Notes under the pieces: generated by a model
Seen by the model: the letters and a program-made list of their open reading frames with translations, nothing else
The model's database searches: none
Told to the model about the DNA's origin: nothing
Part shown: positions 22,842 to 59,074 of the stretch, piece after piece
Position numbering within the stretch: position 1 is the first letter of the stretch
Layout: each line of letters opens with the position of its first letter
Origin: Polyangiales bacterium
GTDB taxonomy: Bacteria; Myxococcota_A; Polyangia; Polyangiales; Ga0077539
DNA: 64,000 nucleotides
Direction: 5' to 3'
Assembly (NCBI GenBank): GCA_046351515.1
Contig: JAXLYJ010000005.1
Span: forward strand, 370,892 to 434,891
Made by a program: the position numbers and the translations under genes

Positions 22842-23186
22842 ATGGAGCGAAGCACGCGCGCGCCGCTGATCGCCTCGGTGCTCGCGCACGGCGCGTTCTT
22901 CGCGTTGTGCGGCCGGGTGCGTGAGCAACGATGGCTGGAGGTGGCAGCCGCGACGGACGCGATCGAGCTCGAGCTCGTGTTCGCGACGTCCGCGCATCGC
23001 AACGCTCCTCGTCGCGACGAGCCTCCGCCCGTGATCGTCGCTCAACCGCGGCCCGAGAGGCTCTCGCGCACGCTCCCGCGCTCGACGCAGACGCCCACCG
23101 AACCGACGGCGACGAGCGAACCCGCGGTCGGTGCGCGCGCGCCGAGCCCGCTGCCTCAGCCGCGCAGTCCTCGGTCACGGGGATGA
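22842..23186 (+). CDS. TonB-like protein, N-terminal TM plus Pro-rich segment (possibly the 5' half of a split TonB gene)
   Basis: TM helix LIASVLAHGAFFALCG, then Pro-rich EPPPVIVAQPRPE...PSPLPQPRSP. Stop TGA overlaps the ATG of the next ORF (ATGA). Confidence 0.45.
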   Translation: MERSTRAPLIASVLAHGAFFALCGRVREQRWLEVAAATDAIELELVFATSAHRNAPRRDEPPPVIVAQPRPERLSRTLPRSTQTPTEPTATSEPAVGARAPSPLPQPRSPRSRG

Positions 23187-24067
23187 ATCTCTTGCGCTCG
23201 ATGTCGCGCGACGCGTACGCCAACGAGCGCTGGCGCTTCGGCTCAGCTCCGGTTGAAGGACCGCTCACGCCCGAGCAGCTCGCCGAGCAGCGCGCGCTCG
23301 ATCGAAACGTCGGTCGAATCACCGATCGATGGAGAGAAGACGCGCTTCGCGCCGCGCCGCCGCCGCGCCCGCCTGGCTCGTCGGAGTACGTTCGCCGCGT
23401 CGCGACTGCGGCTGCGAGGGCCTGGGCGCCGGTTCGCGCGCAAGATCCGTCGATCGCCGAGGGGCTGCTGCGCCTTCTTCTCGCGGGCAGCGAGGGATAC
23501 CGCGCGGCGCAGGCGGACTCGCTGGGCATGTTCGCGAATGGCCGCGTCGCTGCCGGCGCAGACGCGGTGAACGACGCGCATCCGCACTCGCCCATGCTGC
23601 AGAGCAACCCGACGCTCAACGAGGTTGGGCGCGCCGCTGCCCAGCGAATCGCGGTCGAAATCGACGTACGACAGAGCGCCGACGGCAGGCTCGTGGCGAT
23701 CTCCGTCGCCCGCTCGTCGGGCAGCGGGTTCTTCGATCGGCAGGCGATCGAGGCCGTTCGTCGCGCCATCGAGCAGAGCGGAGCCCGCGCGTCCTCGGAC
23801 TCGACCGTCCCGACGCGCACACGCTGGGAGTTCGAGCTTCGCGTCGCGCGCAATCCTCCGTTCGCGCTCGGGCCGCAATTGCCTGGAGCTCCCACGGTGT
23901 TCAACCTCGCGTCGGGCGGCGTCGAGTGGGGCGGCGTCGATCCTCCGCGCCCGATGTATCCCTTCGCGCTGCATCGCTATCAACGCGTGCGGATCCTCTG
24001 GGTGACCGCAGACACGACGCCGAACGCAGCCGCGGCTCGTGGCCCGACTCGCGACGCGGGGCGCTGA
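23183..24067 (+). CDS. TonB C-terminal-domain-like protein (possibly the 3' half of the same TonB-family gene, or a coupled separate gene)
   Basis: ...IAVEIDVRQSADGRLVAISVARSSGSGFFDRQAIEAVRRAI resembles the TonB C-terminal domain. Reading frame differs from 22842..23186 by +1. Confidence 0.5.
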   Translation: MNLLRSMSRDAYANERWRFGSAPVEGPLTPEQLAEQRALDRNVGRITDRWREDALRAAPPPRPPGSSEYVRRVATAAARAWAPVRAQDPSIAEGLLRLLLAGSEGYRAAQADSLGMFANGRVAAGADAVNDAHPHSPMLQSNPTLNEVGRAAAQRIAVEIDVRQSADGRLVAISVARSSGSGFFDRQAIEAVRRAIEQSGARASSDSTVPTRTRWEFELRVARNPPFALGPQLPGAPTVFNLASGGVEWGGVDPPRPMYPFALHRYQRVRILWVTADTTPNAAAARGPTRDAGR

Positions 24068-24144
24068 TCCCCAATCGAGCGGCGAGCGTTCGCGAGGCAA
24101 TTCCCGTGGGCCACTTGCTGCGACCATGCGCCGCGCGGTAGGCA

Positions 24145-28215: not shown

Positions 28216-29812
28216 TCAGGGGCTCTGTGGTGGCGCGGTCGCAGCCGTGCCGGGTTGCGCCGCGGCGCCTTCCACGCGAATCGCGTCGAGCTCTGCGTCG
28301 AGCTGCGCGACGAGCGCGGTGAACTGCGGTCGCAAATTCGCCGGGACTTGCCGCCTCCACGCGAGAAACGGCGCTCCGTCGATGAACTGCCCCGAGCGCT
28401 TGACGCTCCAGTGAAGGTGCGGGCCTGTGCTGCGCCCGGTCGATCCGACATAGCCGATCACCTGCCCGACGCGCACGCGCTGACCGAGCGAGATCGACGG
28501 CTCGAATCGAATCAAGTGCGCGTAGCCCGTCTCGAGGTTGAGCTGGGGATGCGAGAGGCGAACGAGGTTTCCCGTAGGGCCGCCCCATCCGCGAAACACC
28601 ACGATCCCGTCGCCCGCGGCCATGACCGGCGTGCCCGCAGGAGCTCCGAAGTCCGTCCCCTGATGGGGCATCACGCGATGCAACACCGGGTGCATGCGGT
28701 GCGGGTTGAACGGCGAGGTGATCCTCGGCGGATTGACCGGCGGTTGCAGCGCGCCCTGCACTTGCGCGGTTCCTTGCGCGTCGAAGTAATCGCCGCCGCG
28801 CGGTCCCGTCTGCATCCAATACCCGCGCTTGTTGCGTCCGCTGGCCGCGCGAAGCTCGATCGCTGTGATCTTCGCGTAGCGAAAGAAGCTGTCGTTGAGG
28901 CGCTCTTCATCGACGATCAACCGCACCGAGTCGCCTTCGTGCAGCGACGCGCCCAGGTCCAGCTCTCGAAACACCTGCTGCAACAGCGGAACGATGTCCG
29001 CGTGCAAGTGCGCCGCGCGCAGCGTGTCCTGCAGCGAGCCGCGGACGACGAAGCCGGCGCCGACGCGGATCGTGGATTTCACCACGCGGATTCGCTCTGC
29101 GCTGCACGAGTTGTCCGCCGCGACCGTGACCGCGATCACCTCGCTCTCGCCGCGACGGTACTCGACCCTGCGCAGCGCGTTGTCGCGCGTCGGATCGCGC
29201 TGCGCGACGACCACGTCCGTCGGCTGAAGCGCCCGCATGTTGACGAGCGTGCGCATCGACGAGATGACTTTGGTCTGGATATTTCCTGTCACTCCGAGCA
29301 GGCGGAGCACCTGCGGCAGCGTGCGTCCTCGCCCGAGCCGCTGATGCGTCGCGATCCAACCCTCGGGCGTCTGTGAAGAGCGGCGACGGAGCCACCGCGC
29401 TCGTCACGTAAGCGCCGCCGCCGTCCGCGCCGCCGTCGCCGTTGTCGAGGGACAGCGCGATCGCAGAAGAGCCCGTGTTTCCTCCGTCCGATGCGCTGGG
29501 CGTGGCCGCGTGCGCCGACGCGCCGAAGCCCGCGCGCGGCAGTCGCACTTTGTTCACCGCGACCGCGACGATCAGTCCGATCGCGCCGAGCGTCGCGCCG
29601 AGCCCGCCCGCGACCGCGCCCACGCGCGTCACGATGCGCCGCGTGTACATCGGCGCCTCGGGCAGCTGCACCATGGTCTTGGGCTGGCGCACGACCGGGT
29701 CTTCGCCGCTCGGAAGCTCGTCGAGATCCAGCGGCTCGGGCTCCGATGGGCGAGGCGGCGGCGCGACCACGCGTCGCGGCGGTTCCTCGATCGGTTCGGG
29801 CAGGTGGGCCAT
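28216..29812 (-). CDS. M23-family (LytM-like) metallopeptidase with N-terminal cytoplasmic segment and TM helix; apparent frameshift near 29370-29404
   Basis: C-terminal HxxxD...HLHWSV M23 motifs (PHQGTDFGAP, GPHLHWSVKR) in frame of 28216..29310. N-terminal MAHLPEP...TM(VGAVAGGLGATLGAIGLIVAVAV) in frame of 28907..30538. Stop in the downstream frame at 29404-29406 forces a +/-1 shift. Confidence 0.6.
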
Positions 29813-30231
29813 CGGCCGCTGGAGTGTGGCAGTGTTCGCGCCCTCGTGCACCCGCTCCTGTTCGTCCTTGCCCTCGCGCGCCCGACGGAGGTCCTCGAAG
29901 AGTGGACCCTGCTCGAGACCGCGCCCGTGCGCGAGCTCGTCACCGCGCGCGTCGTGTACGACCGTGATCGCGGCCCCGAAATCGCACTTCCAACGGTCTT
30001 CGACAGCGACCGCGCGCCTCCCTCGGTCGAACTCGTCGGCCACCTTCGACCGTTGGTGGTCACGCGCGTCGGAGCCTCGTGGCACGCGCGTTTGCCCGAG
30101 CCGACGAGCACGCCGCGGCCGCGCGTCGTGGTGCGATCGGTGCGTGAGGCGAGGGACGTTCGGCTGTTTCAGCTCGGATGGCCAGTCACGAACGGTGAGG
30201 CGATTCGCAGGGTGGCGATCGTTCCTCGCGG

Positions 30232-30801
30232 GTGGATGCAGGTGATGAGCGAGGGGTGGACGTGCGCCGACGATTCGATCTCGTCGATCGCGTGCGTCTC
30301 GATCGACACTCGTCCCAACCCGCTGCGCGTGCGCGTCTCGCCGCTCGCCTCTTCGCGCGGCGCGTGGATCGCGACGGCGGTCTTCTCCTCGCGCTCTGCG
30401 CGTTGTTGACGCTGCGAAAGCCGAAGACCGAGCGCCTGGCCGCTGCATCGACGTGGCTCGTCGCGCTGATCGCGACCAGCTCGGTCGCGCTCTCGCTCGT
30501 CGGCGCTCGCTGGACGTCCTGGAGCATCGCGCTCTCAACCGCAGCGCTCAGCGCGACGGCGCTCGCCGCGGTCGTGGGCTCCGATGACGGCGCTCGCCGC
30601 ACCGGCGCGATCGCTGCGCTCGCCATCGCGTTGCTCTCGGTCTTCGACGGGCGACCTTCGCTCTCGTTGGCGGCGCTCGCGGCGGCGTTGTTTGCGCTCG
30701 CTGGCGCTCGATGGATCAGCCGCGCGTCCCCGCGTCCGAGCCCACCGCGCACGGATCCACGACCATCGGAGGCGGAGGAGTCGCGTCCCCCGACACCGTG
30801 A
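30232..30801 (+). CDS. Possible small polytopic membrane protein (hypothetical)
   Basis: Ala/Leu-rich hydrophobic segments (3-4 predicted TM). Start uncertain; overlaps the 3' end of the next minus-strand gene. Confidence 0.3.
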   Translation: MDAGDERGVDVRRRFDLVDRVRLDRHSSQPAARARLAARLFARRVDRDGGLLLALCALLTLRKPKTERLAAASTWLVALIATSSVALSLVGARWTSWSIALSTAALSATALAAVVGSDDGARRTGAIAALAIALLSVFDGRPSLSLAALAAALFALAGARWISRASPRPSPPRTDPRPSEAEESRPPTP

Positions 30802-31887
30802 TCGGGACGAGCTCGAAGCGAAACGCGACGCTCATGGCGCTGCAATCCGCAGCGGGGTTGGGCACGCCGCTCGCGGTGATGTCGAGCGCCGCTGCGACGC
30901 CGAGCAGAACGGTCGTCCATTCCATCGTCGACTGTCGCTCTTGGCACACGCCGAAGGTGCGGAGGTCTTCGAAGATCTGATTGCGCGCCCAGATCGCGCT
31001 CAGATCCAAGGTGGTCACGTTGCCCATCGCGTCGAGTTGGCCCGAGAGGCGGATGTCCGTGAGCGTGATCTGCGTGCGAATTCGCGCGTTGGCGAAGTAC
31101 AGCGGGGCGTTGTTCGGAAACGGCATCACGATGGTGCCGCACGAGGAGAACGCGTCCGTGGTCGAGACGCGGATCGTGCGACCGTCGGCGCCGTAGGCGA
31201 GTCCGCGGTGGATGCTCCACTCGTCGCGTCCGTCCCAGTTGGGCATCGCGGTGGGGTTGGACGGCGGGTGACCGTCGACGAGCGGCAAGAGTTCGACGGT
31301 GATCGAGGCGTCATTTGCCCGCCAAAATCGCGGAGGCGCAGACCGATCGTCGACGACCCGTCGGCGATGTTGCTGTTGAGATCGCTCTCGTTGAACGAGC
31401 TGCCGAAGACGCCGACCTGGCCGATGACGCTGCCGAAGGCGTTGTCGCGGCCGTTCATCCCGTCGGCGAGCACGAGCGGCGAGCGGCACGGGACCATCGG
31501 CGCGCCGCCGCCCGGCGGGTTGGGGGTGGTGCACATTCCATCGCGATCGAAGCCGATGCCCGACCATGCGCCGCCTGCGCCCAACAACACGCGACGCACC
31601 GCGAAGACCTTGGTCGACCCGATGCTGTTCGCAAGCCCCGCCGGCAGCGACGGAACGATCGCCAAATCGCAGCCCGCTCCCGCGTCGCGCGTTCGCTGAG
31701 CACACGCGGCGGGGCCTCCGTCGCCGCTCGCGTCGCTGCTCGCGTCGTTGCGCGGCGCGAGGGCGTCGTTGCTCGCGTCGCCGCGGCCCATCAGCCGCGC
31801 GTACTCGGCGCGATCGAAGGCCTGACACGCGTGGGTCGCGGGGATGGCCAAGAGCGCAGCGCACAGCGTGAGCGTTCGGTGTTTCAT
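30716..31887 (-). CDS. Secreted Cys-containing hypothetical protein, paralog 1 of a tandem pair; apparent frameshift near 31305-31320
   Basis: Signal peptide MKHRTLTLCAALLAIPATHAC. N-terminal part is in the frame of 31126..31887 and the C-terminal part in the frame of 30716..31864. Shares DAG(A)GC...LAI(V/I)P, DGxxGRDNAFG, WDGRD(E/T)W and C-terminal motifs with paralog 2. Confidence 0.5.
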
Positions 31888-31897
31888 CGCGGAGCCT

Positions 31898-33069
31898 CTA
31901 AGGATCGACCGGCGCGCCGCCGTCGGAATTGCAGTTGTTCAGCTGAGGAAACGAGGTGCTCGCGACGCCTTCGACCGTGACCGGGCGCCACACCAACCGA
32001 AGCGCGAGCGTGGCTGCGTTGCACGCGACAGCGCTGTTTTGCGAGAGGTTGTTGAGCACGTCGAAGGCCTGCGAGATCGCGTCGATCCGGTCGTTGAACG
32101 TGCCGCTCGGACCGATCGGGGCGGGCAGTAGTCGAACCACGGCAGCGACTCGATGACGTTTTGCCTCGTCCACACGCCGATCAGATCGGTCGTCCCTCCG
32201 TTGGCGGGATCGAACGCGCCGGCGAGCTTGACGAGGTCGACCGACAACATGCGCAGCCGTCCGGTGTTGAGAAACGCGAGCGGAACGCGATCACCAAACG
32301 ACGCGACGAAGTAGCCACACGCCACGAACGCGTCGGACGAGCGCGCGCGAGGCGTCGTGGTGGACGGCGCGAACGACAGCCCGGGATCGATCGTCCACGT
32401 GTCGCGACCGTCCCAGGTCAGCGCCGTCGAGCCCGCAGGAGGGCGACCGTTGGTGAGCGTGAGCCAGTCGACCGAGACGTTGCGATCGTCGCCGCCGCCC
32501 CACTCGGTGATGCGCAATCCGAGCGCCAATCTCCCGGTTTGAAGCCCGTCGGTGACCTCGGTGTCGACGAGCGTTCGAGTGATGAGGAGGCTCGTCGCGA
32601 TCGCTCCGCCAAACGCGTTGTCGCGGCCATCGAGGCCATCGGCGACGATCTGCATGGGGCGGCACGACTGCTGTTCGGGCGTCGCCGTCGGAGCGGTGCA
32701 GCGTCGATCGACGTCGAAGCCGATTTGGCTCCAGTTTCCGAAGGAGCCAGGGCCGATGTCGAGTCGCTGCAACGCGAGGGTGTACGTGCGGCCGTTCGTC
32801 GGCTGATCGGCGAGCGCGCTCGGAGGCGCAGGGATGATCGCGAGCGAGCAGCCTGCGTCGTCTGTGGCGGTGCGCTGCAGGCACGCGCCTGCGCCGTCTT
32901 CGACGCTCGCCTCCGAGCCGACCGCGTCGAGCAGCGCGTGATAACGATCGCGGTCGAACGCCTTGCATCCAGCGAACGAGCACAGAATCGATCCGACGAT
33001 GAGCGAGCGAACGCGCACGACCCTCGAAGGGTAGCGCATCCGCGGCCTGGATCGCTGCACTGCAAACAA
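31898..33069 (-). CDS. Secreted Cys-containing hypothetical lipoprotein, paralog 2 of the tandem pair; apparent frameshift near 32140-32150
   Basis: ...LIVGSILCSFAGC lipobox. The body is in the frame of 31939..33069; the conserved C-terminus (GTFNDRIDAISQAFDVLNN...VACNAATLALRLV) is in the frame of 31898..32173, after the WFDYC motif. Confidence 0.5.
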
Positions 33070-33100: not shown

Positions 33101-34216
33101 GTGGCGAAGAAATCAGTCGTGTGGGTCGTAGGTCGCGCGCCAGACTGCGACGTCGTCGTGGATCACCCGACGGTGAGCGGTCGGCACCTGCGAATTTCCT
33201 GGCAGGGTGATCGTGTGCTCATCGAGGACCTCGCGAGCGCCAACGGCACGTTCGTGGGAGAGCAGCGCGTCTCGAAGGCGACCGTTCGACCGGGCGATGA
33301 CGTGATGATCGGCCAGGTGGCCTTTCCGTGGGGCCACGCTTCGCTCAAGCCGTTTCTTCGCATGGCGGCGAAGGGCACGATCGTCGCGCCGCCGACGCTC
33401 GCGGGAAACGTCGCGCGATCGACGCTTCGAATCGTGGGCGTGTTCGTGGGCATCGGCGCAGCGCTGATCGGAGGGCTGTGGTTGACCGAGCCCGGCCGCA
33501 ATTTTCTGGCGTATTTGCGGCTGCAAGAGCAGGCGGCGACGGCGAGCACCGACGAAGAAGCGTTTGTCCGGACGACGATGGTTCCGCAGCTGCGCCGAGC
33601 GCTCGATCCGATGGAGCCCACCGTGCGCAACACCGCAGTGCAGCTCGCGGCGCGCAACGAGGGCACGTTTCGGGTGGAGCAGGTGGCCTCGATTTGGTCG
33701 TACGTGCGAGAGCACTGGCGGTATGTCAACGATCCGCGGGGGCGCGAGTACGTCGCGCTTCCTCGCGAGTCGATCCAGAACAACTACGCGGGCGACTGCG
33801 ACGACTTCGCGGTGACGCTCGCCGCGATGGTGCGCGCGATCGGCGGCGAGGCGCGCGTCGTGTTTATGGAGGGATCGCGCGGCGGCCACGCGTACGCAGA
33901 GGCGTGCGTGCAAGAGCCGGCGAACACCGTGGCGACGAAGATCGCGCAGTTCTATGGGCGCAATTGGGCGCGATACGCGTCGGGCCGACAGCACATCGCC
34001 TATCGCTCGTCGCAAGCGTGCCCCGTGTGGCTCAACCTCGATTGGAACGCGAACGTCCCCGGCGGCGACTACGAGCCCGAGCGCTGGGCGGTCGCCGCGT
34101 ACGCTGACGGTCACACCGAGGTGCTCGCGGTGGCGCCCGGCGCCGAGCCGACGGCGCGCGCGCGACAAGCGGCGACGGCGAGCGCTCCTCAGCGGCTCTC
34201 GACGCGCGGACGCTGA
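33101..34216 (+). CDS. FHA-domain protein with TM helix and C-terminal transglutaminase-like (papain-fold) domain
   Basis: N-terminal FHA (VVGRAPDCDVVVDHPTVSGRHLRISWQGDRVLIEDLASANGTFVGEQRV); TM LRIVGVFVGIGAALIGGLWL; transglutaminase core GDCDDFAVTLAAMVRAIG...GGHAYAE. Confidence 0.75.
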   Translation: MAKKSVVWVVGRAPDCDVVVDHPTVSGRHLRISWQGDRVLIEDLASANGTFVGEQRVSKATVRPGDDVMIGQVAFPWGHASLKPFLRMAAKGTIVAPPTLAGNVARSTLRIVGVFVGIGAALIGGLWLTEPGRNFLAYLRLQEQAATASTDEEAFVRTTMVPQLRRALDPMEPTVRNTAVQLAARNEGTFRVEQVASIWSYVREHWRYVNDPRGREYVALPRESIQNNYAGDCDDFAVTLAAMVRAIGGEARVVFMEGSRGGHAYAEACVQEPANTVATKIAQFYGRNWARYASGRQHIAYRSSQACPVWLNLDWNANVPGGDYEPERWAVAAYADGHTEVLAVAPGAEPTARARQAATASAPQRLSTRGR

Positions 34217-34233: not shown

Positions 34234-36269
34234 CTACGCGGCGCGCTCGACGAGTCCGATGCGCGCGAGCAGCGCGTCTACGGTGGCGTCGCGGCCCATG
34301 AACTCGCGAAACAGCACGGCGGGGTCTTCGCTGTCGCCTCGAGAGAGCACGCTCTTGCGAAACGCCTCGCCGGTGGCGCGGTTGAAGATGCCCTCGCGCT
34401 CGAAGCGGGTAAACGCGTCGGCGTCGAGGACCTCGGCCCACTTGTACGAGTAGTAGCCGGCCGCGTACCCGACCGGGTCGGCGAACAAGTGGTTGAAGCT
34501 CGCGATCATCGCGTAGTCGTCGGGCAGCGGCGTGGCGGCGAACTGGCCCATCACTTCGCGCGCGAAGCGCACGACGTCGCCGTGCTTGGCGGGGTCGTAC
34601 GTGCGGTGCAGCTCGAGGTCCACCGTCGCGAACGAGAGCTGACGCATCTGCATCGTCGCTTCGCGAAACGTCCGCGCGCGCTTCATCTTGGCGAACAGCT
34701 CGTCGGGCAGGCGCTCGCCTGTGGCGTGATGCTTGGCGAGCAGCTCGAGGGCCTCGCGCTGCCAGCACCAGTTTTCATGGATCTGCGAGGGAAGCTCGAC
34801 GAAGTCCCACGCGACGCGGGTGCCGACCATTCCTCGGATGTCCACCGACGAGAGCGCGTGATGAAGGAGGTGTCCGAACTCGTGAAAGAGCGTCTCGACC
34901 TCGCGAAACGTGAGCAGCGCGGGGCGCTCGGCGGACGCGGGCGTGACGTTGGCGCAGAAGAGCCCCACCTGCGGCCCCTCGCTCGGCAGCGACGAGAGGA
35001 TCCCGTTCATCCACGCGCCGTCGCGCTTGTTCTCGCGCGGGTACAGGTCGATCGCGAAGCGGCAGAGCTCGCGCTCGCCGTCGAAGATCGAGAACGCGCG
35101 CACGCTCTCGTGATAGCGCGCGGCGTCTTCGCGCTCGCGCACCGAGAGGCCGTAGACGCGCTCGATCACCGAGAACATTCCGCGGACGACGGCGTTGGCC
35201 TCGAAGTACGGCCGCAGCATCTCTTCGTCGAAGGCGTACCGCGCGAGCCGCATCTTCTCGGAGTAGTACGAGACGTCCCACGGCTCGAGCTCGGGCGCCT
35301 TCGGCCCTTCGAGCTCGCGGCGAAACGCGAGCAGCTCGGCCTTCTCTCGCTCGAAGAACGGGACGGTCCTCCGCCGCAAATCATCGACGAATCGCGAGGC
35401 GGTCTCTCCGGTCTTCGCCATGCGATCGGCGAGGACGTAGTCCGAGAAGTCTTTGAAGCCCAAGAGCTGCGCTTGCTCTTTGCGAAGCGCGAGGATCTCT
35501 CCGAGCAGCGGTCGATTGTCGAACGGCTCGCGCGTCGCGCTGGTGTTGTACGCGTGCCACAGCGTCTTTCGCAGCGCGGCGTCGTTGGCGTACGTGAGCA
35601 CCGCGAGGTAGCTCGGCGACTGCAGGGTGAATCGAAAGCCCGTGAGTCCCTTGCTCTTCGCGCTCTCTTTGGCCATCGCGAGCGCCGAGGGCGGCAGGCC
35701 CGCGACCTTCGACTCGTCGCTGATCACGATGTCGAACGCGGCGTGCGAGTCCAGGACGTTCTGCGAGAACTTCGTGGTGATCTCGCTCAGGCGAGCGGCG
35801 ATCGCGGCGAGGCGCTCTTTGCCTTCGGGGGCGAGCTCGGCGCCCTGTCGACGAAAGCCGTCGAGCGTCTTGTCGAGAAAGCGCTTCTGCGGCCCGGTGA
35901 GCGCGCGCGCTTCGTCGGTCTTCGCGTAGCTCGAGACGGCCTGCCACAGCGCGGGGTCCAAGGGAATCTTCGAGTAGAACTCGCTCACCTTCGGCTGAAC
36001 GTCGTTGTACGCGTCGCGCAGCGCCGGCTCGTTCATCACGGCTTCGAGGTGTGAGACCACCGCCATCGCCCACTCGAGCTCGCGGGTGCTCTCGTCGAGC
36101 GCGCGCAGCGTGTTGTCGAAGGACCGCGGCCCGGTGAGCGCACAAATCGCCGCGATGCGCTGCTTCGAACGCGCGATCAACGCGTCGATGGCGGGACGAA
36201 CATGCTCAGCGCGCGGACGCGCTCGTACGGGGGATCGATGCTCAGTTCGAGCAGAGGGTTGTCGCTCAT
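34234..36269 (-). CDS. M3-family oligopeptidase A / peptidyl-dipeptidase (PrlC/Dcp-like); N-terminal 20 codons lie in a different frame (apparent 1-nt indel near 36205)
   Basis: HEFGHLLHH zinc motif; end-to-end similarity to E. coli OpdA. MSDNPLLELSIDPPYERVRA (ATG at 36267-36269) aligns to E. coli MTNPLLTPFELPPFSKIRPEH but is frame-shifted relative to the body ...EHVRPAIDALI. Confidence 0.85.
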
Positions 36270-41146: not shown

Positions 41147-41156
41147 CGCATCGACC

Positions 41157-42516: not shown

Positions 42517-43891
42517 ATGGATCCGAGCCCGTGGGCACTTGAACGAGTCGGCCTCGTCGTCGCCGAGCGTTATCGCATCGAGCGATTGTTGGGCGAGGGC
42601 GCGATGGGCGCGGTCTTCGGTGCGCGTCACGTCAAGCTCGGTCGACCGGTGGCCATCAAGCTCATGCCGCCCGAGGACAAGCACGAGGCCGAGGCGGTGC
42701 AGCGCTTCGAGCAAGAGGCGGTCGCAGCGGCGTCCGTCGCGCGTCGAGGCGTCGTCGAGGTCTTGGACTTCGGCGTCGATCCCGTCGTCGGCGCGTACAT
42801 CGTGATGGAGCTGCTCGAAGGCGAGTCGCTCGAAGCGCGGATTCGTCGCGAGCGAACGCTCTCTCCGACGATCACGGTCTCGCTGCTCGCGCCGGTGCTC
42901 GACGCGCTCTCGTCTGTGCACGCGCGGTCGATCGTGCACCGGGATTTGAAGCCCGCGAACCTCTTCGTATCGCGCAACGAAGAGGGCGAAGAGGTCGTGA
43001 AGATCCTCGACTTCGGCGTCTCGCGGGTGCGTGATGGACGACGCGTTCCGACGACGGCGGTGGGCATCGTTGTGGGGACGCCGCGCTTCATGGCGCCCGA
43101 GCAAGCGCGGGGCGTCGCAGACCTCGACGCGCGCGCGGACCTCTACGCGATCGGCGCCATCGCCTACGCGTGCCTCGCAGGAAAGCCACCGTACGCAGAC
43201 CTCGGCTACGTCGACGTGATCTCTGCGATCCTCTCGGGGCCGCCCACGCCGTTGACGCAGCTCGTGGCCAATGTCCCTCAAGGGCTGCTCGCGGTGATCG
43301 AGAAGGCGATGGCGCGCGATCGCGAGGCGCGCTTCGCCAACGCCGCAGAGATGCGCGCGGCGTTGCTCGTCGCGGCGAGCTCGAACTCGAAGCCGCCCCC
43401 CGAGCCGAACGTCACCGTCGCCGCGCGCCCGAGCGCGACGATCGACAGCCCCGTCACGAAAGAAATCGCCGGCGTCACTCGCCCCAGCGCTCTGTCGTCG
43501 CCGCCGGTCTCGGTCATTCCCGCGACGAAGTCCGCGCAGCCCGAGGACCCCAAGGCGCCCATCCTCGCGCACCTCGCGATCCCGAACGCCGCGTTGCCGC
43601 CGCTCGGCCCCGCTCCCGCCGCGATGCCCGCGCCGTCGCCGTACGCGATCGCGGCGCCGCCCGCGGCGATGTCGCTCGCGCCCGCTCCGCAGCCCGCCCC
43701 GATCGGTGCGCGCTGCGCCGATGGCGGTCCCTGCCAAGAGCGGAGGCCGAGGGTGGCTCGTCGCGCTCGCGTTGATCGTCACGCTCTTCGTCGGGTTCGC
43801 GGCGTTTGCGGTTTGGTACTTCGTGGACGACGACTCGGAGGTGACGACGGGCGCGCGCTCGCTCGCTCCGTGCTCGTCGGCTGCAAGCTGA
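42517..43891 (+). CDS. Ser/Thr protein kinase with C-terminal TM anchor; apparent frameshift near 43700-43740
   Basis: Start at ATG 42517. GEGAMGAVF, AIK, HRDLKPANL, DFG, APE motifs. The C-terminal TM (GWLVALALIVTLFVGFAAFAVWYF) lies in the frame of ORF 43706..43891. Confidence 0.75.
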
Positions 43892-44786: not shown

Positions 44787-44845
44787 ACGTTCTATGAGAA
44801 CAATGATAGTTTGCTCATGCGTGTCTGGGCATCACGATCCTGCCC

Positions 44846-45899
44846 ATGAACGACGCACCCACCGTGGTCACCGGCGGCACTGGCTTCATCGGCCGCTGGC
44901 TTCTCAGCGAGCTCACCGCGAGGCGCCGCGCGGTCGTCGCGCTCGTTCGCGACGGCGCGCGCAGAGAGAGAGCTTCGCGCGTTCGTCGACGGACACGGCG
45001 GCGACGGCGCGCGGCTGACGGTCCTCGACGCGGATCTGCACCGAGACGACCTCGGGATCGGCGAGACGCTCGGCGAGGTGCGCGCCGTGTTGCACCTCGC
45101 GGCGCACATGGAGTTCGGACTCACCGTCGAGCAAGCGCGCAGGAGCAACGTCGAGACGACGCTCAACGTCCTGCGATGGGCCTCGCGGCGCGCCCGCGTC
45201 GAGCGCGTGGTCCTGCTCGGCGGCTACAGGATGACCCGGCCCGAGCCAGCGCTGCGCGCGTTCTCCCGCGAGCTCAGCGAGCGCGAAGCGCTTCGGCTCT
45301 ACCGCGGTCGCGGGGCGTACGAAGTGTCCAAGCACGAGGCGTACTGGGCGTTTCGACGGCTCGCGGACGAGCGCGGCGTTCGATGGTCCGCCGTGCATCC
45401 ATCGAGCGTGATCGGCGATTCGCGCACGGGAGAGACGCTGCAATTGATGGGGCTCGCGGAGACCGTGCGCAGCCTGCACGAGGGACGAATGCCAGCGATG
45501 GTGGGCGGGGCAGAGACGTTCGTTCCGGTGGTGGCCGTGGATCATCTCGCGCGCGTCTTGGCCACGGTGGACGAGCGCGAAGAGACGCTGTCGCAGGACC
45601 TGGTGGTGCTGGCGTCGGACACGCCCGCGTTGCCCGCGTTGATCGCGCGGATCGCGGCGCGCATGGGCCGACGTTCGCCGCGGATTTCGCTGCCCGTCGA
45701 GCTCGTGCGCGCGCTTCCGAAATGGCTGAGCGGCGTCGAACGCGAGGCGCTCGATTTCATCGCGAGCGATCGGTACGACACCGAGAGCGCCGACGCTCAC
45801 GCGCACGCCATGGGCATCGAGGCTCCCCCGACGCTCGCGACGATCGACCGCTGGTGCGACTACCTCGTGCAGACGCGGTTTCTTCAGACCCCGCGCTGA
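44846..45899 (+). CDS. NAD-dependent epimerase/dehydratase-family protein; frameshift at an (AG)5 tract at 44963-44972
   Basis: N-terminal VVTGGTGFIGRWL Rossmann motif (frame of 44846). The remainder, ...AVLHLAAHMEFG...YEVSKHEAYW (YxxxK), is in the frame of 45078..45899. The frames diverge exactly at CAGAGAGAGAGC. Confidence 0.7.
44963..44972. repeat. (AG)5 dinucleotide tract at the epimerase frameshift point
   Basis: The tract gcAGAGAGAGAGct is visible in the sequence; both flanking frames encode conserved epimerase segments. Confidence 0.6.
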
Positions 45900-47793: not shown

Positions 47794-50700
47794 ATGGAGC
47801 GACGCAGCGTCTCTCTAGACCCAGCGTGGTCGGTCACGTTTTCCCCGCTCAGAGTGTGCGGTGACCGATGGGATCCAGAGCCCTACTGCGTCGTGGCGTT
47901 GTGTCCCGTCGACGCATGGAGTGCAGTGTTGACTACGGAAGCTGCGGTGGATGTGCAGAGCCCTGTCATTCAGGCGGTGGCTCGACTCAGTGATCGCGCG
48001 TTGGCCCGCCTGGTGGGCGCGAACGCGTACCTTCGGGGCCGGGTGTACGCGAGGCAAGCTTGCGTTCACGCGCTCGCGGTCGCGGGCAGTGAAGCCTCCG
48101 GTCGCGTTCATGGCCGCGCGAGCGACCCTTACGACGTGAAGGTCAACCTCTCGGACGAGGGCGGCTTGACCAGCCAGTGCTCGTGTCCCGCGTGGCGCGG
48201 ACCGGACCGGCACTGCAAGCACGTCGCTGCGTTGCTCGTGGCGTTGCGCGACAAAGTCCGCCCGCCGCGATCACAGCAGCAAGGGGAGGGTGGGGAGAGA
48301 GACTCGAGCGCGCCGCCCGCGCCCAACGCGACGCCCAACGCAGCGAGCAACAACAACGCTGGCAGCGCGAACAACGCTCTCAGGCCGCCCAAGCCCAAGG
48401 ACGGCGGTCGCGAGCGTGAGCGCGAGCGAGAGCGAGACCGAGATCGCCACGATCGCCGCGACGCGAAGAACCCGCGACGGCGCGATGACACGGGCTCTGC
48501 GCGCGAAGTGGTCGTGATGGATCGATCGGGCCCTCGCGTGGTGTCCGCCGGGGAATGTCCACGGTGCAGTCGGTCTCGGCGTCCGCGAGCGCGAGCAACG
48601 AGCAGCCCAAGGGGTTTGCGGCGTGGGTTCCGTCGAACGAGCCGAGAAAGGCGCCGGAGATCGAGTACCGCGTGCACGTGCGGTCCAACTCGCTCGCGAT
48701 CACGCCGTACCTCGCTGAGTCGCGCACGGCCGTCGCGCCGTCGGACGCGCTCGATCAGCTCGGCGCGCTCCCGAGCGTGCATCGTCCGATCCTTCGCTTG
48801 CTCGCGCGGTTGCACCCCAAGGGTGCCCGAGGAGCGCAGGTCGAGGCGCGCAACGAAGACGCTGCTGAGCTGGTCGCGCGGCTGCGCGGGCGGCGCGTGC
48901 TGGTCGAGCCGATGCTCATGGAGCTCCGGTACCTCGACGAGCCGCTCGTCCCGAAGATCGAGCTCGAGATGGTCCCGCCGTCGCACGTGCGCGTGCGTGT
49001 TGTGTTCGAGCGCAAGTCCGGCGATGCGCGGCGATTCAACCTCAATCAGGGCCTGTGGCTCGAAGGCGATCCGGGCTGGCACCTGGACCCGATTCAAGGC
49101 GTCGCGCGGCCGCTCGCGGATCACGTCACGTCCACGTGGCTCGAGCGTCTGCTCAAGACGCCGGCGGTCACTCACCCCACGAGCGACGTCGCGCGGTTGC
49201 TGAGCGAACACCTGCCCAAGGTCTCGCTCGCGCTCAACGCTCCGCTGCCGGACATTCGCGCGATCGTCGACGAGATCGACGTCGCGCCGAAGTTCGTGAT
49301 GCGCGCGGCGGGTGACCTCACGCGCGTGGTCGGAACGCTCGATGTGAAGTACGGCGAGCACGAGTTTCAGGTGCCGCCGGTCGAGCTTCCTCCGCCGCTC
49401 GTCATCTTGGAGAGCGCGGGCGTGCGGCCCAAGTGCCTGCGTCGAGACGTGGGCGCTGAGCGCCTCGCGGTGAACATGCTGCTCGATGGCGGGCTCGAAG
49501 TGACCGATGATTTCCGTGCGTTTCAAGCGACGGAAGACCGCGCGGTGAAGTTCTGGAGCGAGTGCGTCCCGTCGCTGCCGCGCGAGTGGGAGAAGTACGT
49601 CCCCGAGCACATGGCGAACGTGAAGGTTCGCAGCGCTCCCCTGACGCCGCGCGCGCGTCTCGTCCGGTGTGGATTGGCTCTCGGTCGACGTCGAGTTCGG
49701 CTCGGAGGGCAGCAAGGCGGCGGAAGAAGACCTGCGCCGCGCCCTCGAAATGGGCCACAAGCTCGTCCGCCTCGAAGACGGAACGTACGCGCGCATCGAA
49801 GGCCTCCAAGTCGCCGAGGTGCTCTCTCGCCTGCAAGAGATCTATCAAAACGGCAAGGGGCAGCTCCCGCTCTCGCAAGCAGGGCGCGTGCAGGACCTGC
49901 TCTCGCAGCTCGGGCAGCGCGCGGACGTCGGCAAGAGCACGAAGGACTTCTTCGCGGCGCTCGGCGAGCACAAGGTCGAGTCCATCGATCCGCCGAAGGA
50001 CCTCGACGCGACGATGCGCCCCTACCAGCAAGAGGGCTTCTCGTGGCTCGCGTACCTGTACCGCACAGGGACTGGCGGAATCCTCGCGGACGACATGGGT
50101 CTCGGAAAGACCCTGCAAGCCATCGCGCTGCTCTTGTGGGTCAAGCGCTTGAGCGAGCCGTTCGTCGAGGCCGACGAAGCGCCGCGCACCAAGGCGAAGA
50201 AGGGCGCGAAGAAGGCCGCCGCTGCGAAGGAAGCGTCCGTCGACGACGACGAAGAAGAGAGCGCGGCGACGAAGAAGGGCGCGAAGAAGGGCGCGAAGAA
50301 GGCTGCGAAGAAGGGCGAAGAGTCCAGCGCTGGCCCGGTGATGGGACCGATGGCGAAGCCGCTCGAGCAGGGCGGTCCGCTGGCGTTGGTCGTGGCGCCG
50401 ACGTCGGTGGTTCCGAACTGGGTGCGCGAGGTGCAGAAGTTTGCGCCCGCGCTGCGAGCGATCGCGTGGACGGGCTCGGATCGCGCTCAGTACAAGAGCG
50501 AGATCGAGCGCGCGGACGTGGTCGTGACGTCCTACGCGCTGCTGCGTCGCGACGAGGAGTTTCTCTCGTCGATCGACTGGGGCTACGTGATCCTCGACGA
50601 AGCGCAGTCGATCAAGAACCCGACCTCGGCCACCGCGCGCGCCGCGAAGAACCTCAAGGGCAAGCGTCGCCTGGCCCTCACGGGAACGCCGATCGAGAAC

Positions 50701-51627
50701 CGCCTGAGCGAGATCTGGTCGATCTTCGACTTCGTCTCTCCGGGCCTTCTGCCGGCGCTCGCGCAGTTCGAAGAGCGCTACGCCAGGCCCATCGATCGCG
50801 GCGACGAGGACGCGGCGCGCAGGCTCCGCTCGACGATTCACCCGTTCGTCCTGCGTCGCACGAAGAACGAAGTGGCCCAGGATCTCCCTGAGAAGATCGT
50901 CACCGAGCGGCTGTGCGAAATGCCGCCAGAGCAGCTCGCTGTGTACAAGACCGTGCTCAAGAGCGTGCGCGACACGATCATGGGCGAGGTCGAAGCGAAC
51001 GGACTGGCGCGCTCGCAGCTGCAGATCCTGGCGGGCCTCACGCGACTGCGTCAGGCCGCGTGCGACCCGCGGTTGCTCGGGATCACAGGCCCGTTCAGCG
51101 ACGAGACCTCGGGCAAGCTGTTGGCGTTGCGCGAGCTGATCAGCGAGGCGCAGCAAGGCGGGCACCGGACGCTGGTGTTCTCGCAGTTCGTCTCGATGCT
51201 GCAGCTCATCAAGACCGCGCTCGATCAGGACGGCGTCACGTACGAGTACATCGACGGCGACACGAAGGACCGTCAGTCGCGCGTCGATCGCTTCAACAAG
51301 GACGAGAAGGTCTCCGTCTTCTTGATCTCGCTGAAGGCCGGCGGAACGGGCTTGAACCTCACCGGCGCCGACACCGTCGTGCACTTCGATCCCTGGTGGA
51401 ACCCCGCGGTCGAAGATCAAGCGACGGATCGCGCGCACCGCATCGGGCAGACCAAGGTCGTCACGGCGTATCGCTTCGTCGCCCGCGGGACGATCGAAGA
51501 GAAGATCCTCGAGCTCAGCGCCAAGAAGCGCGAGCTGGTCGAGAACGTGCTCGGACAAGAGCAAGACGAGAAGGTCTCGGGCGTGCTCACGCGCGCCGAG
51601 CTCGATCGACTGTTCAGCGACGAGTGA
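47794..51627 (+). CDS. SWIM zinc finger / SNF2-family helicase, about 1,260 aa, currently split over three frames (47794-~48500, 48555-~49650, 49669-51627)
   Basis: N-terminal CSCPAWRGPDRHCKHVAALLV SWIM finger. C-terminal SNF2 motifs LADDMGLGKT, DEAQSIKN, LALTGTPIEN, helicase-C (LVFSQF...DRFNKDEKVSVFLISLKAGGTGLNLTGADTVVHFDPWWNPAVEDQATDRAHRIGQ). Lys/Ala-rich insert at 50150-50340. Two apparent indels join the three pieces. Confidence 0.7.
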
Positions 51628-55653: not shown

Positions 55654-55660
55654 ACGAGAT

Positions 55661-56923
55661 TCAGCGCAGCGAGAGCGCGACGACCAGCGCGACGCCGACC
55701 AAGAGCACGCCTCCGATCACCCATGCGGTCGAACGGTTGCTCGTCGGCGAAGCGACCTCGGACGACGCCTGTGACGCCGGCTCGATCGGCAGGATCGACG
55801 AGGCCGCCACTCTCGCGACGGGAACCTTCTTCGTCGGGTCGTCGCGATGCGCGTCGGCCACGTTCGTCGGCGGCTCACTCGGCGTGAGATCGAGCTGCGC
55901 CGGCCGCGCGTCCTCGGGCGGCGTCACGTTCGCAGGGGCGGGAATCGACGCTGCGCTCTCGCGGATCAACGCGACCGCGACCTGCCGTGGCATGTCCTCG
56001 GTGGGCGCGATCGACGCAGGCACGGTCTTTCGCTCTCCCGTCGCGACCCACGGAATCACCTCGGCGCTCGCGAACGGCTCGAGCGCGTCGCACAGCGCGT
56101 CCATCGACGGCCACCGCGTCTCGGGCGAGATCGACATCGCGCGGGCGATGCACGCTGCGAGCTCTGGCGACACCGACGGGACCAGCTCGCGAATGTCCGT
56201 CGGAGTCGTCGTGGCCTTCGCCAGCGCGAGTGACGTGAGCGACTTCGCGGTGAACGGCGCGGCGCGCGAGATGCACTCGTACAACACGCAGCCGAAGGCG
56301 TATTGATCCGCCTCGGGGCCGACGTCCTTCGACGCGCCGATTTGCTCGGGCGCCATGTACATCGGCGTTCCGAGGGTGGCGCCGGTTCGCGTGAGGCGCT
56401 CGCGCGACGAGCGAAACTTCGCGACGCCGAAGTCCAAGAGCTTCGGCGTGGGCTCGGCCATCCCTTCTTCGCGCGCGATCACGATGTTCTCGGGCTTCAC
56501 GTCGCGGTGGACAAACCCGCGCTGATGCGCGAACGCCAGCGCCCTGCCGATCGGAAGCAGCGCTCGCACGATGGTGCCCACGCTCGCCTCGGGCAGCGCC
56601 GAGCGCCACTCGCGAAGCGTGGTTCCGTCGAGGTACTCCATCACGAGATACGTGCGACCCGCGTCCGTGCCGTAGTCGCTGACCTCGACGATGTTGCGAT
56701 GACGCGCCTCGTTGACCGCGCGCGCCTCGTTGAGAAACCGCGCGCTGCCCTCGGAGTCGAGCGTCTCTGGGTGCAAGACCTTCAGCGCGACGCGCCGGTT
56801 GATGTCCACGTGCGTGGCTTCGAACACCGCGCCCATCCCTCCTTCAGCGATCAACCGCTGAACGAGGTATTTGCCGCCAATGGTGCGGCCGATCAATTCA
56901 AGGTGCGCAGGCTCGGATGGCAC
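55661..56923 (-). CDS. Ser/Thr protein kinase with C-terminal TM anchor
   Basis: GEGGMGAVF, ALK, HRDVKPENI, DFG, APE motifs; C-terminal TM AWVIGGVLLVGVALVVALSL; intact. Confidence 0.8.
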   Translation of the reverse strand: MPSEPAHLELIGRTIGGKYLVQRLIAEGGMGAVFEATHVDINRRVALKVLHPETLDSEGSARFLNEARAVNEARHRNIVEVSDYGTDAGRTYLVMEYLDGTTLREWRSALPEASVGTIVRALLPIGRALAFAHQRGFVHRDVKPENIVIAREEGMAEPTPKLLDFGVAKFRSSRERLTRTGATLGTPMYMAPEQIGASKDVGPEADQYAFGCVLYECISRAAPFTAKSLTSLALAKATTTPTDIRELVPSVSPELAACIARAMSISPETRWPSMDALCDALEPFASAEVIPWVATGERKTVPASIAPTEDMPRQVAVALIRESAASIPAPANVTPPEDARPAQLDLTPSEPPTNVADAHRDDPTKKVPVARVAASSILPIEPASQASSEVASPTSNRSTAWVIGGVLLVGVALVVALSLR

Positions 56924-59074
56924 GCGAGACCTCCTCGGAGACGCTCATGGTCGCGTCCGTGTCGTCGACGCGAGCGTAGACCCCAGAGGGTGTGCCTGCG
57001 AACTCCCTTCCGAGCGTGAGCCGCACGATTCGTGTCGCCGCGTCGCCTTCGCTCAGCGAGAGCGCGACCGACGCTTCGCCGAGCGCGGCGTTCGCGGCGC
57101 TTGGTCCATAGCCAAACACTCTTGGCGCTCGCACGGATGAGAGCGTCTCGAGCATGGCCTCGACTCGCGAACGATCGAAGCTCGCGCCGCCTTCGACGCG
57201 CCATCCGCTCGCCTCGCGACGCAGGACGAACCGCGGTTGCCCGCGCTGTTGGCACTCGATGCGCTGCACGGCGCTTCGGTCGAACGCGAGCACCTCGCGA
57301 TCCACGTGCGGCTGCAAGAGCTCGTCGAGCGCGGACTGCCCGAGCACGAACACGCCGTCGCGATCGACGATGCGCGCGTACGCCCCTCCGCCGGCGATGG
57401 CCGCGCCGATCGCGATTTGGTACTCGCGCACGCGCGGGCCGCCGTCGGCGCCGGCGTCAGCGTTGGGCGCGCCTTCTCCTCGAAGCGCGCGATCAACCGC
57501 GCGCGCGGACGGTCGAGTCCGTGCTCGGGCCGCGGCGAGAGCGAGACCCAGCGTTGCGCGTCGAGCGAGGCGAGGCGCTCGGAGATCGTGCGCATCACCA
57601 CCGGATCTGCGTCGCCGCTCGAGGGGTGGATGAGCGACCAACGTCCGGCGTCTCGGCTCACTTCGTCGCGAAAATCACTGCTCTCGGTGACGAGCGCGCG
57701 CAGCTCGTCGGGCACGTCACGGATGACCGCCTGCGAGCGAAAGCGCGCGGCGTCGACGAAGAGGGTCGTCTCTGCGGCGGTCGACATCGCCAGGATCGAT
57801 CGCTCGCCTTCTCGACGAACGTACACGTGGTCGGCGTCGCGCGCGCCGATCTCGATGCGCTCGCGTCCTTCGATTCCGGTGCGCGAGACCTCGATCCACA
57901 TCGTCGCAGGGGCGAGCGATCGGGCGGGCGCTTCGCTCTCGGGCAAGCGCGACTCGACGCGCAACGACGAGAGCGCGTCGAGCCACTGTTGAACGCTGTC
58001 GGCGTCGGCGTCGCCACGCACTCCTTCGAGCCGCCAGCTGTCGGCGTTGCGCCGCGCGGTGACCTCGCCGCTCGGCCCGTGCAAGAGCACGCGCTCGACC
58101 TCGTCCGAGCGCGCGAAGAGCACTTGATTGTCTCGCAGATCGTCGGCGGTGCGCGCGGCGTTGTCGAAGCTCGTGCGGGCGACGCACGCGATCTCGCGCG
58201 AGTCGTCGCGGCGCGCGATCACCTCGTCGGCGTGCTCGGGGCAGGGGCCTCCGTAGCGAATCACGAGCGCCGGTCGTCCGCTGCGCGTGACGGTCATCGT
58301 GGCCCGAGGCCGATCGAGGCCGAACCGCGCGAGCGCCGCGTCGTCGGCGTTGTCTTCGACGAAGCGGGTCGCGCGAAGCTCGCGCAGATCTCCGAGCAGC
58401 GCGTCGATCGCCGCGCGCCCGACGCGCTCGTTGTCCTCGAGGCGCCACACGTTGTTCTGCTTGGCGAGGACGGTGCTGCGCTCGCCCGAGCGAAGCTCGA
58501 TGCGCGTGACGCGGTCGACCTCGACCTCGACGATGTTGCGCGAGCGCAGGTCGCGGGCGCGGACGAGAAACGCGTCGGCGACCGAGCGCGCGAGCACGAA
58601 GCCTTTGCCGTCGTACTCGACGTAGACGGCGCGCTCGTCGCGGACGTCGGCGCCGATGGTGAATCGGGTGGAGACCGTCGCGTTCGACTCGCGGAGGGTG
58701 ACGCGCGCGCGCGGGGCGTCGAGGCCGAACTGATGGCGTTGCTGCGCGTCGAGGGCGCCGAGAACGCGCGTTGGCTGCGCGTATTCGGCCTCGGTGAGCA
58801 TGCGCTCGACCTCGGTGTCGTCCGCTTCGGAGGCGCGGTTGCCGCGCTCGACGAGCCAGCGCGCGCCGTCTTTGCGACAGGTGAACTGCTCGATCCCGCG
58901 GTCGACCTCGATGCGCTGAATCTGGTCTCGTCGCAGCGCAGAGAACACGCGGGCGTGTCGCTCGTCACGGACGATGTCGGGCACCTGGCGGTTGGACCAC
59001 CAGAGACCCGCCGCTCCGACGGCGACCATCACCGCGAGCACTCCTGTCGTGCGAAGCTGATTCTTCTTCGCCAT
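56898..59074 (-). CDS. DUF4340-family protein (GldG-associated); apparent frameshift near 57480-57500
   Basis: N-terminal TM anchor MAKKNQLRTTGVLAVMVAVGAAGLWW with repeated domain body in the frame of 57053..59074. The conserved C-terminal domain is in the frame of ORF 56898..57641. Confidence 0.55.

Follow-up and report, generated by a model that had tools for sequence, protein, structure and literature searches.

In the window, by which we mean the whole 64,000-nt stretch of DNA analyzed, eleven indels of 1 or 2 bases interrupt ten genes (Table 1), a gene being scored as split if two same-strand reading frames were bridged by an intact homologue or by the coordinates of a Pfam profile. The window's proteins correspond to MFO05583xx-84xx; the contig that encodes them measures 490,825 bp and belongs to an NCBI Polyangiales metagenome-assembled genome (MAG) with locus-tag prefix U0269. 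A preliminary description of this region had listed nine of the genes with ten breaks, and all ten proved to be genuine frame changes, each situated about 30 nt or less from the position given there. That list was incomplete, as it missed the eleventh break, at 30386 in the gene for a 318-aa membrane protein. Its term "single-base" is only partly accurate, as about five of the eleven changes are 2-nt indels in short repeats. Similarly, the break in secreted paralog 1 does lie beside the GGCGGGC motif at which it had been placed, although the actual site is an A/T run, and the frame change in paralog 2 is present but is located about 25 nt from the suggested position of about 32145.

Table 1. 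Broken genes and further indel sites in the window (positions are those of the window)
Feature	Position	Strand	Change
TonB-like gene	22842..24067	+	Break somewhere in 23130-23183, -1 (or +2) type
M23 peptidase gene	28216..29812	-	2 nt (GC) missing at 29377, within CGCTCGCT
318-aa membrane-protein gene	29846..30801 (also given to 30798)	+	One G missing at 30386 (G3 to G2)
Secreted paralog 1, 390 aa when intact	30716..31887	-	One A missing at 31313 (coding-strand A4 to A3)
Secreted paralog 2, 380 aa when intact	31898..33039	-	One C missing at 32121 (coding-strand C5 to C4)
1-nt deletion at paralog 2 stop codon	31898		A2 to A1; stop kept, TAA to TAG; versus L169 only
opdA (oligopeptidase A/M3 peptidase), 677 aa when intact	34234..36269	-	2 extra nt at 36210, CG repeat
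Ser/Thr kinase gene, 458 aa when intact	42517..43891	+	CG missing at about 43703 in CG repeat
NAD-dependent epimerase/reductase gene	44846..45899	+	Break at (AG)5 tract 44963-44972
SWIM-SNF2 helicase gene	47884..51627	+	1 nt missing at 48551 (G/C-rich run); one CG unit missing at 49657
DUF4340 gene, 725 aa when intact	56898..59074	-	One G missing at 57479 (G3 to G2)
Intergenic 1-nt deletion	20770		C6 to C5 versus Logan contig
Intergenic 1-nt deletion	40165		G5 to G4 versus both Logan contig L161 and relative L162

Three kinds of comparison material were available. Within the same MAG, the window region is duplicated on two contigs of 34,866 bp (34.9 kb) and 13,069 bp (13 kb), which were compared with the window through their proteins (MFO05637xx and MFO05639xx, likewise with prefix U0269). 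These contigs encode identical copies of the intact neighbor genes together with full-length versions of the broken ones, and in each case the full-length protein aligns with the window in two frames, left and right of the junction, at 95-100% identity. The duplicate contigs end at a strain-variable insertion. In addition, seven Logan contigs, derived from SRA runs SRR26348422 and SRR26348423, cover 21,881 bases (21.9 kb) of the window at 99.6-100% identity, and relative to some of them the window represents a slightly different haplotype (0.1-0.35% synonymous divergence); a literature search by run accession found no mention of either run. Finally, relatives at ~93% nucleotide and 88% amino-acid identity carry single-frame orthologues.

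The TonB-like gene changes frame between its N-terminal portion, which comprises the membrane anchor and a Pro-rich linker, and its conserved C-terminal part (TonB_C/TonB_2). More specifically, homologue residues 33-136 match the N-terminal piece in frame +3, in which three synonymous third-position differences occur, and homologues of 425-432 aa align in frame +2 from 23165/23171 on; candidate break sites are (GC)5 at 23133-23142 and GGGG at 23176-23179. Accession numbering places one protein between the flanking genes on the duplicate contig versus two on the window contig. In the epimerase gene, positions 1-47 of the NAD_binding_4 profile fall in one frame and positions 60-257 in another, a homologue (P0069) spans 44953 to 44970, and the segment is missing from the relative L165. 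This break is probably the loss of one AG unit, (AG)6 to (AG)5. Because Logan contig L171 stops at 23080, before the TonB-like junction, and a concatenated homologue search yielded no relative above 52% identity for either gene, we infer the exact indel in both the TonB-like and the epimerase genes.

The helicase gene, whose start codon lies uncertainly within 47884-48136, carries two breaks, as had been proposed: the relative L001 has it as a 1242-aa single ORF, whose alignment is spread over three frames of the window and changes frame near 48552-48618 and again near 49648-49661. The second break represents (CG)6 to (CG)5. Four loci span the first junction and about 80 the second, and the flanking genes on the duplicate contig enclose one protein only.

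For the M23 peptidase, the intact allele is MFO0563722.1 (532 aa), and the break is a 2-nt loss in a CGCT 4-mer tandem rather than a simple repeat-unit change. Junctions were spanned by same-MAG intact proteins for M23 (P0056), paralog 1 (P0047), paralog 2 (P0041), and opdA (P0036), all 98.5-100% identical across the junctions. Position 32121 in paralog 2 is the sole difference between the window and Logan contig L167 over 2238 nt. In opdA, a frame change separates the N-terminus MSDNPLLELSIDPPYERVRA from EHVRPAIDAL, so that the 2 extra nt cut off the first 20 codons; a metagenome scan with opdA returned relatives at ≤58% identity only, useful solely for recognizing the N-terminus. This frameshift, being an insertion (+2), fits a picture of deletions imperfectly. 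Homology to the kinase is spread over frames +1 and +2, and the CG loss puts its C-terminal membrane anchor in another frame.

The strand and frame assigned to the 318-aa gene are stop-free and have the best synonymous-to-nonsynonymous ratio (33:23), and a relative's protein splits into two frames in tblastn. A 119-aa minus-strand ORF at 30386, called on a Logan contig, is disfavored, as the synonymous/nonsynonymous pattern fits the plus-strand gene. Read on the minus strand, the change at 30386 is CGAGGGAGAAG to CGAGGAGAAG, and the break at 57479 shares the CGAGGGAGAAG context. The latter interrupts the DUF4340 gene, part of an ABC-transporter/GldG-like operon, for which a 729-aa L001 ORF aligns partly in frame -1 and partly in frame -3, with the switch at 57479-57485.

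Same-strand frame switches at 1289, 6578, 9917, 17910, 46880, 60655, and 61401 simply mark where one complete gene ends and its neighbor begins, with complete, separate Pfam domains on each side or two genes in relatives. We detected no frameshifts in 1-22.8 kb or 57.5-64 kb of the window, and the error rate is thus uneven.

Intact versions of the M23, 318-aa, paralog 1, paralog 2, opdA, kinase, and DUF4340 genes were found in Logan contigs or same-MAG duplicates. For the TonB-like gene, the epimerase, and both helicase sites, the comparison is based on relatives, Pfam coordinates, or accession counting, same-strain DNA being the basis at the other sites only. The frameshift products P0037, P0042, P0045, P0055, P0060, and P0066 have exact matches in NCBI only, and none was seen in Logan or JGI assemblies; the intact neighbor proteins are present in both NCBI and Logan. 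At the compared sites, we found no disruption reproduced across independent sequences of the lineage.

The indels themselves show a marked directionality. All eight indels between the window and the Logan contigs are bases missing from the window (8/8; two-sided sign test, p = 0.008), and five of them break genes. They affect homopolymers (C6, G5, C5, A4, and A2), one CGCT tandem, and, twice, the 11-mer CGAGGGAGAAG, the remaining frameshifts being located in (CG)n or (AG)n tracts. With each site counted once (two sites are common to the overlapping contigs L168 and L169), G/C runs were shortened in 0 of 2166 cases for two-base runs, 2 of about 450 for three-base runs, 0 of 100 for four-base runs, 2 of 14 for five-base runs, and 1 of 1 for six-base runs. 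Both three-base (G3) events fall within the identical 11-mer, and the window contains no copy of GAGGGAGAA.

Substitutions relative to the Logan sequences comprise 29 synonymous, 6 nonsynonymous, and 2 intergenic changes (i.e., 29/35 coding substitutions are synonymous), and one 6.3-kb stretch holds four frameshifts versus one substitution. Thus, indel placement ignores coding, whereas substitutions show purifying selection. In alignments of 29 orthologous genes there were no in-frame stop substitutions, as opposed to 11 frameshifts, and coding potential is kept on both sides of every break. With Logan contigs or same-MAG proteins as referee, those differences from the 93% relative that were not traced to the window are intergenic, multiples of three, or compensated pairs.

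Since other assemblies of the same population are intact at all testable breaks, the breaks are almost certainly consensus errors rather than real pseudogenes, and sequence comparison makes it very probable that all eleven frame changes are errors in the consensus sequence of the 490-kb contig and that the organism itself does not have these mutations. The earlier preference for systematic indel error over decay is therefore supported by the intact near-identical sequence, by high-scoring segment pairs that bridge every junction, and by the single-frame orthologues in related genomes. Judging from the size of the contig, the redundancy of the bin, and the error signature, the errors most likely originate from long reads. 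The long contig would have been built from error-prone long reads, which may under-call the lengths of homopolymers and short repeats and make k-mer-specific errors. Such errors would have been missed by short-read polishing, possibly since the duplicate contigs drew away the correcting short reads, and polishing failure where duplicate contigs compete for reads could account for the uneven error rate. Gene-fragmenting indel errors in long-read assemblies were reportedly described by Watson and Warr in 2019. According to other published work, the errors most often left in long-read bacterial assemblies are residual ones in homopolymer length, which survive wherever short reads cannot be aligned reliably (PMC8812927); genes are pseudogenised by such assembly errors (PMC12007338), and short tandem repeats are prone to high ONT error (PMC11912559).

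Several other readings were weighed. One is that the genes were truly inactivated, very recently, in a single co-existing strain, such as a sublineage deficient in mismatch repair whose slippage indels the long contig reports faithfully; this appears improbable. Replication errors also give slippage at homopolymers and dinucleotide repeats, and the window is a distinct haplotype by its genuine, mostly synonymous polymorphisms versus some Logan contigs, a difference that makes strain-specific real indels logically possible. Such decay is difficult to reconcile, however, with the concentration of frameshifts in the 6.3-kb stretch, the one-way direction of the Logan indels, the identical 11-mer struck twice, and the involvement of two- and three-base runs, at which slippage is rare. 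Nor are there nonsense mutations, large deletions, or IS insertions; the coding signal is undiminished in both halves of each gene, which are still at least 95% identical to intact alleles, and the frameshift products are absent from the Logan and JGI assemblies. For a real mutator sublineage living beside the wild type, one would have to assume that about 35 kb acquired eleven frameshifts by slippage and hardly any substitutions, which we regard as less probable again; if true, the contig would have caught a free-living myxobacterium in the midst of explosive gene inactivation.

An artefact of another kind, in which an assembler or polisher collapsed a strain mixture or assemblies were merged, is a slimmer prospect than either. 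The indels do not lie at polymorphic positions (L167 shows 0 substitutions and 1 indel), and length-dependent homopolymer shortening plus a recurrent k-mer context are base-calling signatures, although the bin is redundant, the population polymorphic, and the break of the duplicate contigs at a strain-variable insertion compatible with such a process. For the biological verdict, this reading equals long-read error, since both leave the organism's own genes intact. Functional recoding, whether by programmed ribosomal frameshifting, transcriptional slippage, or phase-variable contingency loci, is barely credible: while the breaks do fall at short repeats, as slippage mechanisms use, ten unrelated genes are affected, and the tracts, of 2-6 bases or repeat units, are well below typical contingency-locus repeats. 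No frameshift is conserved, since the orthologues, at 88-100% identity, keep a single frame across every site, and programmed frameshifting and phase variation were rejected on that ground.

The pattern resembles known long-read (ONT/PacBio) assembly errors in its 1-2-nt indels, deletion bias, length-dependent homopolymer shortening, and single recurring k-mer context, in the splitting of genes into adjacent ORFs while the same DNA is unbroken in short-read-type assemblies, and in its persistence in repetitive or duplicated parts of the assembly. It differs in that nearly half of the events here are dinucleotide-unit changes and one is a 4-mer-tandem loss, so the picture is not purely one of homopolymers, and in that the technology behind the MAG is one we infer. 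Genomes undergoing reductive evolution, such as those of Mycobacterium leprae and recently host-restricted symbionts, also contain many interrupted neighboring genes with recognizable halves. Decaying genomes show mixed nonsense mutations, deletions, and IS insertions under relaxed selection, with lesions common to independent isolates; in contrast, the lesions observed here are small indels only, stop-free, accompanied by mostly synonymous substitutions, and absent from every other assembly. Likewise, the programmed frameshifts of prfB, dnaX, and IS3 transposases yield one protein from two overlapping frames, and their sites are conserved among orthologues with defined slippery motifs, whereas every orthologue here is single-frame.

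The value of these results is practical, for annotation repair, rather than biological. The annotation of this GenBank MAG is wrong for at least ten genes. Some of their products were deposited as if they were ordinary proteins although they are cut short or have out-of-frame tails, among them MFO0558404.1 (opdA, 648 aa), MFO0558413.1 (kinase, 563 aa), MFO0558425.1 (DUF4340, 673 aa), MFO0558402.1, MFO0558400.1, and MFO0558397.1, and such sequences pass into protein databases. The redundant contigs inflate estimates of genome size and duplication for the bin. For most sites, the corrected sequence is obtainable from the duplicate and Logan contigs, and claims of pseudogenisation, gene loss, or novel short ORFs for this MAG would be artefacts.

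Because the G+C content of the window is so high (63-70%, mean ~68%), raw ORF lists were uninformative. We employed a codon-usage log-odds scan, trained on the window's long ORFs, to locate same-strand coding segments that abut across frames. The frame-to-frame abutments at which stop-to-stop ORFs overlap coincided with all ten breaks listed in the preliminary description, with small corrections, and added one near 30386, in a gene for a 318-aa membrane protein. Coding signal was full in both halves of every broken gene. When the pieces were scanned against Pfam, TonB_C and M23 matched C-terminal pieces only, the DUF4340 match was likewise located in the C-terminal piece, and the helicase carried SWIM in piece 1 and SNF2 plus Helicase_C in piece 3; the epimerase profile was cleanly divided, one frame giving NAD_binding_4 positions 1-47 and the following frame 60-257. 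Other frame changes were rejected as breaks: the one at 46880 is where an alpha/beta hydrolase gene, which has a lipoprotein signal of its own, meets an independent gene upstream, and those at 1289, 6578, 9917, 17910, 60655 and 61401 are ordinary gene boundaries.

Intact orthologues and alignments across the junctions, both proposed as checks in the preliminary description, were found: related genomes carry single-frame genes, and homologues and proteins from the same MAG span the breaks in two frames. More specifically, the helicase SNF2 part, used as a query against species-representative genomes, returned 80 Myxococcota loci, the closest of which (L001; 88% amino-acid identity) is syntenic over ~41.9 to 59.5 kb. 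Its helicase (one 1242-aa ORF) aligned to three window frames, and its DUF4340 protein (one 729-aa ORF) and kinase to two each. The helicase junction at 49.65 kb was bridged by essentially all 80 loci and that at 48.55 kb by four. Homologues of opdA begin M..NPLL..F.IPFD.IRAEHVEPAI; the window's counterpart is split, MSDNPLLELSIDPPYERVRA and EHVRPAIDAL being encoded in successive frames. The two adjacent secreted paralogs each bridge the other's junction. Alignment of the TonB-like homologues (425-432 aa) starts at 23165/23171 in frame +2, and their residues 33-136 run co-linearly with the N-terminal piece, which is in frame +3; an epimerase homologue spans 44953 to 44970 at equal length only when a single AG unit is put back. 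Finally, three syntenic JGI contigs (L162, L165 and L166; metagenome 3300044940; 90-95% DNA identity), hereafter the 93% relative, carry every one of these genes intact.

Exact look-up assigned the window's intact proteins to MFO05583xx-84xx, from the 490,825-bp contig of an NCBI 'Polyangiales bacterium' MAG. Several are also listed under another accession (MFO05637xx or MFO05639xx) with the same locus-tag prefix (U0269_37xxx versus U0269_10xxx). Clustering around orthologues of a close JGI relative placed these second entries on two shorter contigs, one of 34,866 bp that runs from prfC to the kinase and one of 13,069 bp that runs from the alpha/beta hydrolase to DUF4340. The source MAG is redundant, in that these near-identical contigs duplicate window ~9000-58300; the break between them is the LysR/epimerase segment. 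On the duplicates, M23 (532 aa), the paralogs (390 and 380 aa), opdA (677 aa) and the kinase (458 aa) are full-length and DUF4340 is partial, at a contig end; the corresponding products of the long contig are shortened or mis-extended (364, 190, 366, 648, 563 and 673 aa). The full-length proteins matched the window at 95-100% identity either side of each junction, in two frames (98.5-100% for M23, both paralogs and opdA). Judging by accession numbering, the TonB-like gene and the helicase each encode one protein on the duplicates versus two on the long contig. PGAP deposited the frameshift products as ordinary proteins (see table); these exact products occurred in the NCBI source only, and identical neighbouring proteins also in Logan assemblies, although gene-caller differences could contribute.

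At the nucleotide level, seven Logan contigs (L161 and L167-L172; SRR26348422 and SRR26348423) matched 21,881 window bases at 99.6-100% identity and revealed eight indels, every one consisting of bases absent from the window. The 93% relative added four frameshifting differences; those of its remaining differences that are not attributed to the window were intergenic, multiples of three or compensating pairs.

Indels, frameshifting differences and deposited frameshift products in the window
Type	Window position	Change or product	Gene or context	Remark
Indel vs Logan	20770	C6 to C5	intergenic	
Indel vs Logan	29377	GC lost from CGCTCGCT	M23	
Indel vs Logan	30386	G3 to G2	318-aa gene	
Indel vs Logan	31313	A4 to A3	paralog 1	
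Indel vs Logan	31898	A2 to A1	paralog 2	stop codon
Indel vs Logan	32121	C5 to C4	paralog 2	sole difference from L167 in 2238 nt
Indel vs Logan	40165	G5 to G4	intergenic	
Indel vs Logan	57479	G3 to G2	DUF4340	
Frameshift vs 93% relative	36210	+2, CG repeat	opdA	confirmed by same-MAG protein
Frameshift vs 93% relative	43703	-2, CG	kinase	confirmed by same-MAG protein
Frameshift vs 93% relative	48551	-1	helicase	
Frameshift vs 93% relative	49657	(CG)6 to (CG)5	helicase	
PGAP product	34234-36180	MFO0558404.1, 648 aa	opdA	alternative start
PGAP product	42517-44205	MFO0558413.1, 563 aa	kinase	out-of-frame tail
PGAP product	57056-59074	MFO0558425.1, 673 aa	DUF4340	
PGAP products		MFO0558402.1, MFO0558400.1, MFO0558397.1		

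Repeats at window 39305, 40912, 48341 and 48428 differ in length from those of the 93% relative without a change of frame: a hypothetical secreted protein by 54 nt, a (CACGAC)n tract by 24 nt, and the low-complexity linker of the helicase by two units of 12 nt. These look like natural variation. The relative's L165 lacks ~1.6 kb (window 44142-45781) that covers the greater part of both the epimerase and a LysR-type regulator (43782-44786, minus strand). This segment appears to be a strain-variable insertion and corresponds to the gap that separates the duplicate contigs. In L166 (11621-12199), a 1.4-kb deletion relative to window 11385-12803 leaves a 192-aa chimeric ORF in which the 37 initial codons of an alpha/beta hydrolase run into the final 156 of a TPR protein, both genes being complete in the window (11278-13268). 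The interval from prfC to the M66 peptidase holds ~9 kb of other genes in the relative (L166 ~565-9330; DUF3854, a 718-aa protein and small ORFs); in the window (15567-18546) it encodes an ECF sigma factor and a DUF4097 protein instead. L166 also contains an IS605 OrfB/TnpB-like gene (15360-16154), and the relative's orthologues of window 40194-41843 (L165 20192-21812), annotated as Pfam fvmX5, fvmX3-analog and YhhN, adjoin recX. The paralogs (window 30716-33039; 390 and 380 aa when repaired) are adjacent secreted/lipoprotein genes, ~30% identical and without a Pfam match, next to an FHA/transglutaminase-core gene (33101-34213), an arrangement conserved in the relative.

The preliminary description had favored indel error over decay, and the direction, context, selection and spectrum of the changes supported that preference. 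In all eight indels relative to the Logan contigs it was the window that lacked bases (sign test p = 0.008), and the chance of shortening climbed with run length (G/C2, 0/2166; G/C5, 2/14; C6, 1/1; each site counted once). Both G3 events fell within an identical 11-mer, CGAGGGAGAAG (minus strand; window 30382-30391 and 57473-57482), which reads CGAGGAGAAG in the window at both places where comparators carry CGAGGGAGAAG; the window holds no copy of GAGGGAGAA. This suggests that a k-mer-specific systematic error lies behind the collapse. Genuine genome decay would make the broken genes true pseudogenes, yet the lesions were not reproducible, their spectrum was not mixed and constraint was not relaxed: against the eleven frameshifts, not one in-frame stop had arisen by substitution across 29 orthologous genes. 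Substitutions relative to the Logan contigs were mostly synonymous (29, versus 6 nonsynonymous and 2 intergenic) and are therefore real strain polymorphisms under purifying selection; the indels were blind to coding, with 5/8 within genes and four frameshifts in a 6.3-kb stretch that shows a single substitution. Programmed frameshifting, by which the two frames would be read as one product, fails because the orthologues are single-frame, and phase variation fails because the tracts are too short. Judged by testable expectations, the window's pattern is that of assembly indel error.

The best explanation of the 490-kb contig is a consensus derived from long reads in which length errors remain at homopolymers and short tandem repeats, and the 34.9-kb, 13-kb and Logan contigs would be accurate short-read-type sequence from the same population. 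Long-read assemblies are known to behave in this way: PMC8812927 describes homopolymer-length errors as their commonest residual error, outlasting short-read polishing where alignment is unreliable; PMC12007338 has such errors breaking genes into fragments, and PMC11912559 reports high ONT error in short tandem repeats. Polishing reads may have been pulled to the duplicate contigs, leaving the long contig's errors uncorrected. Such diversion fits the confinement of all eleven frameshifts (~23.1-57.5 kb) to the apparently duplicated span (roughly 9-58 kb), with none in the other ~15 kb, a statistically weak contrast. The split genes are not a biological feature, and what is needed is annotation repair and removal of redundancy from the bin.
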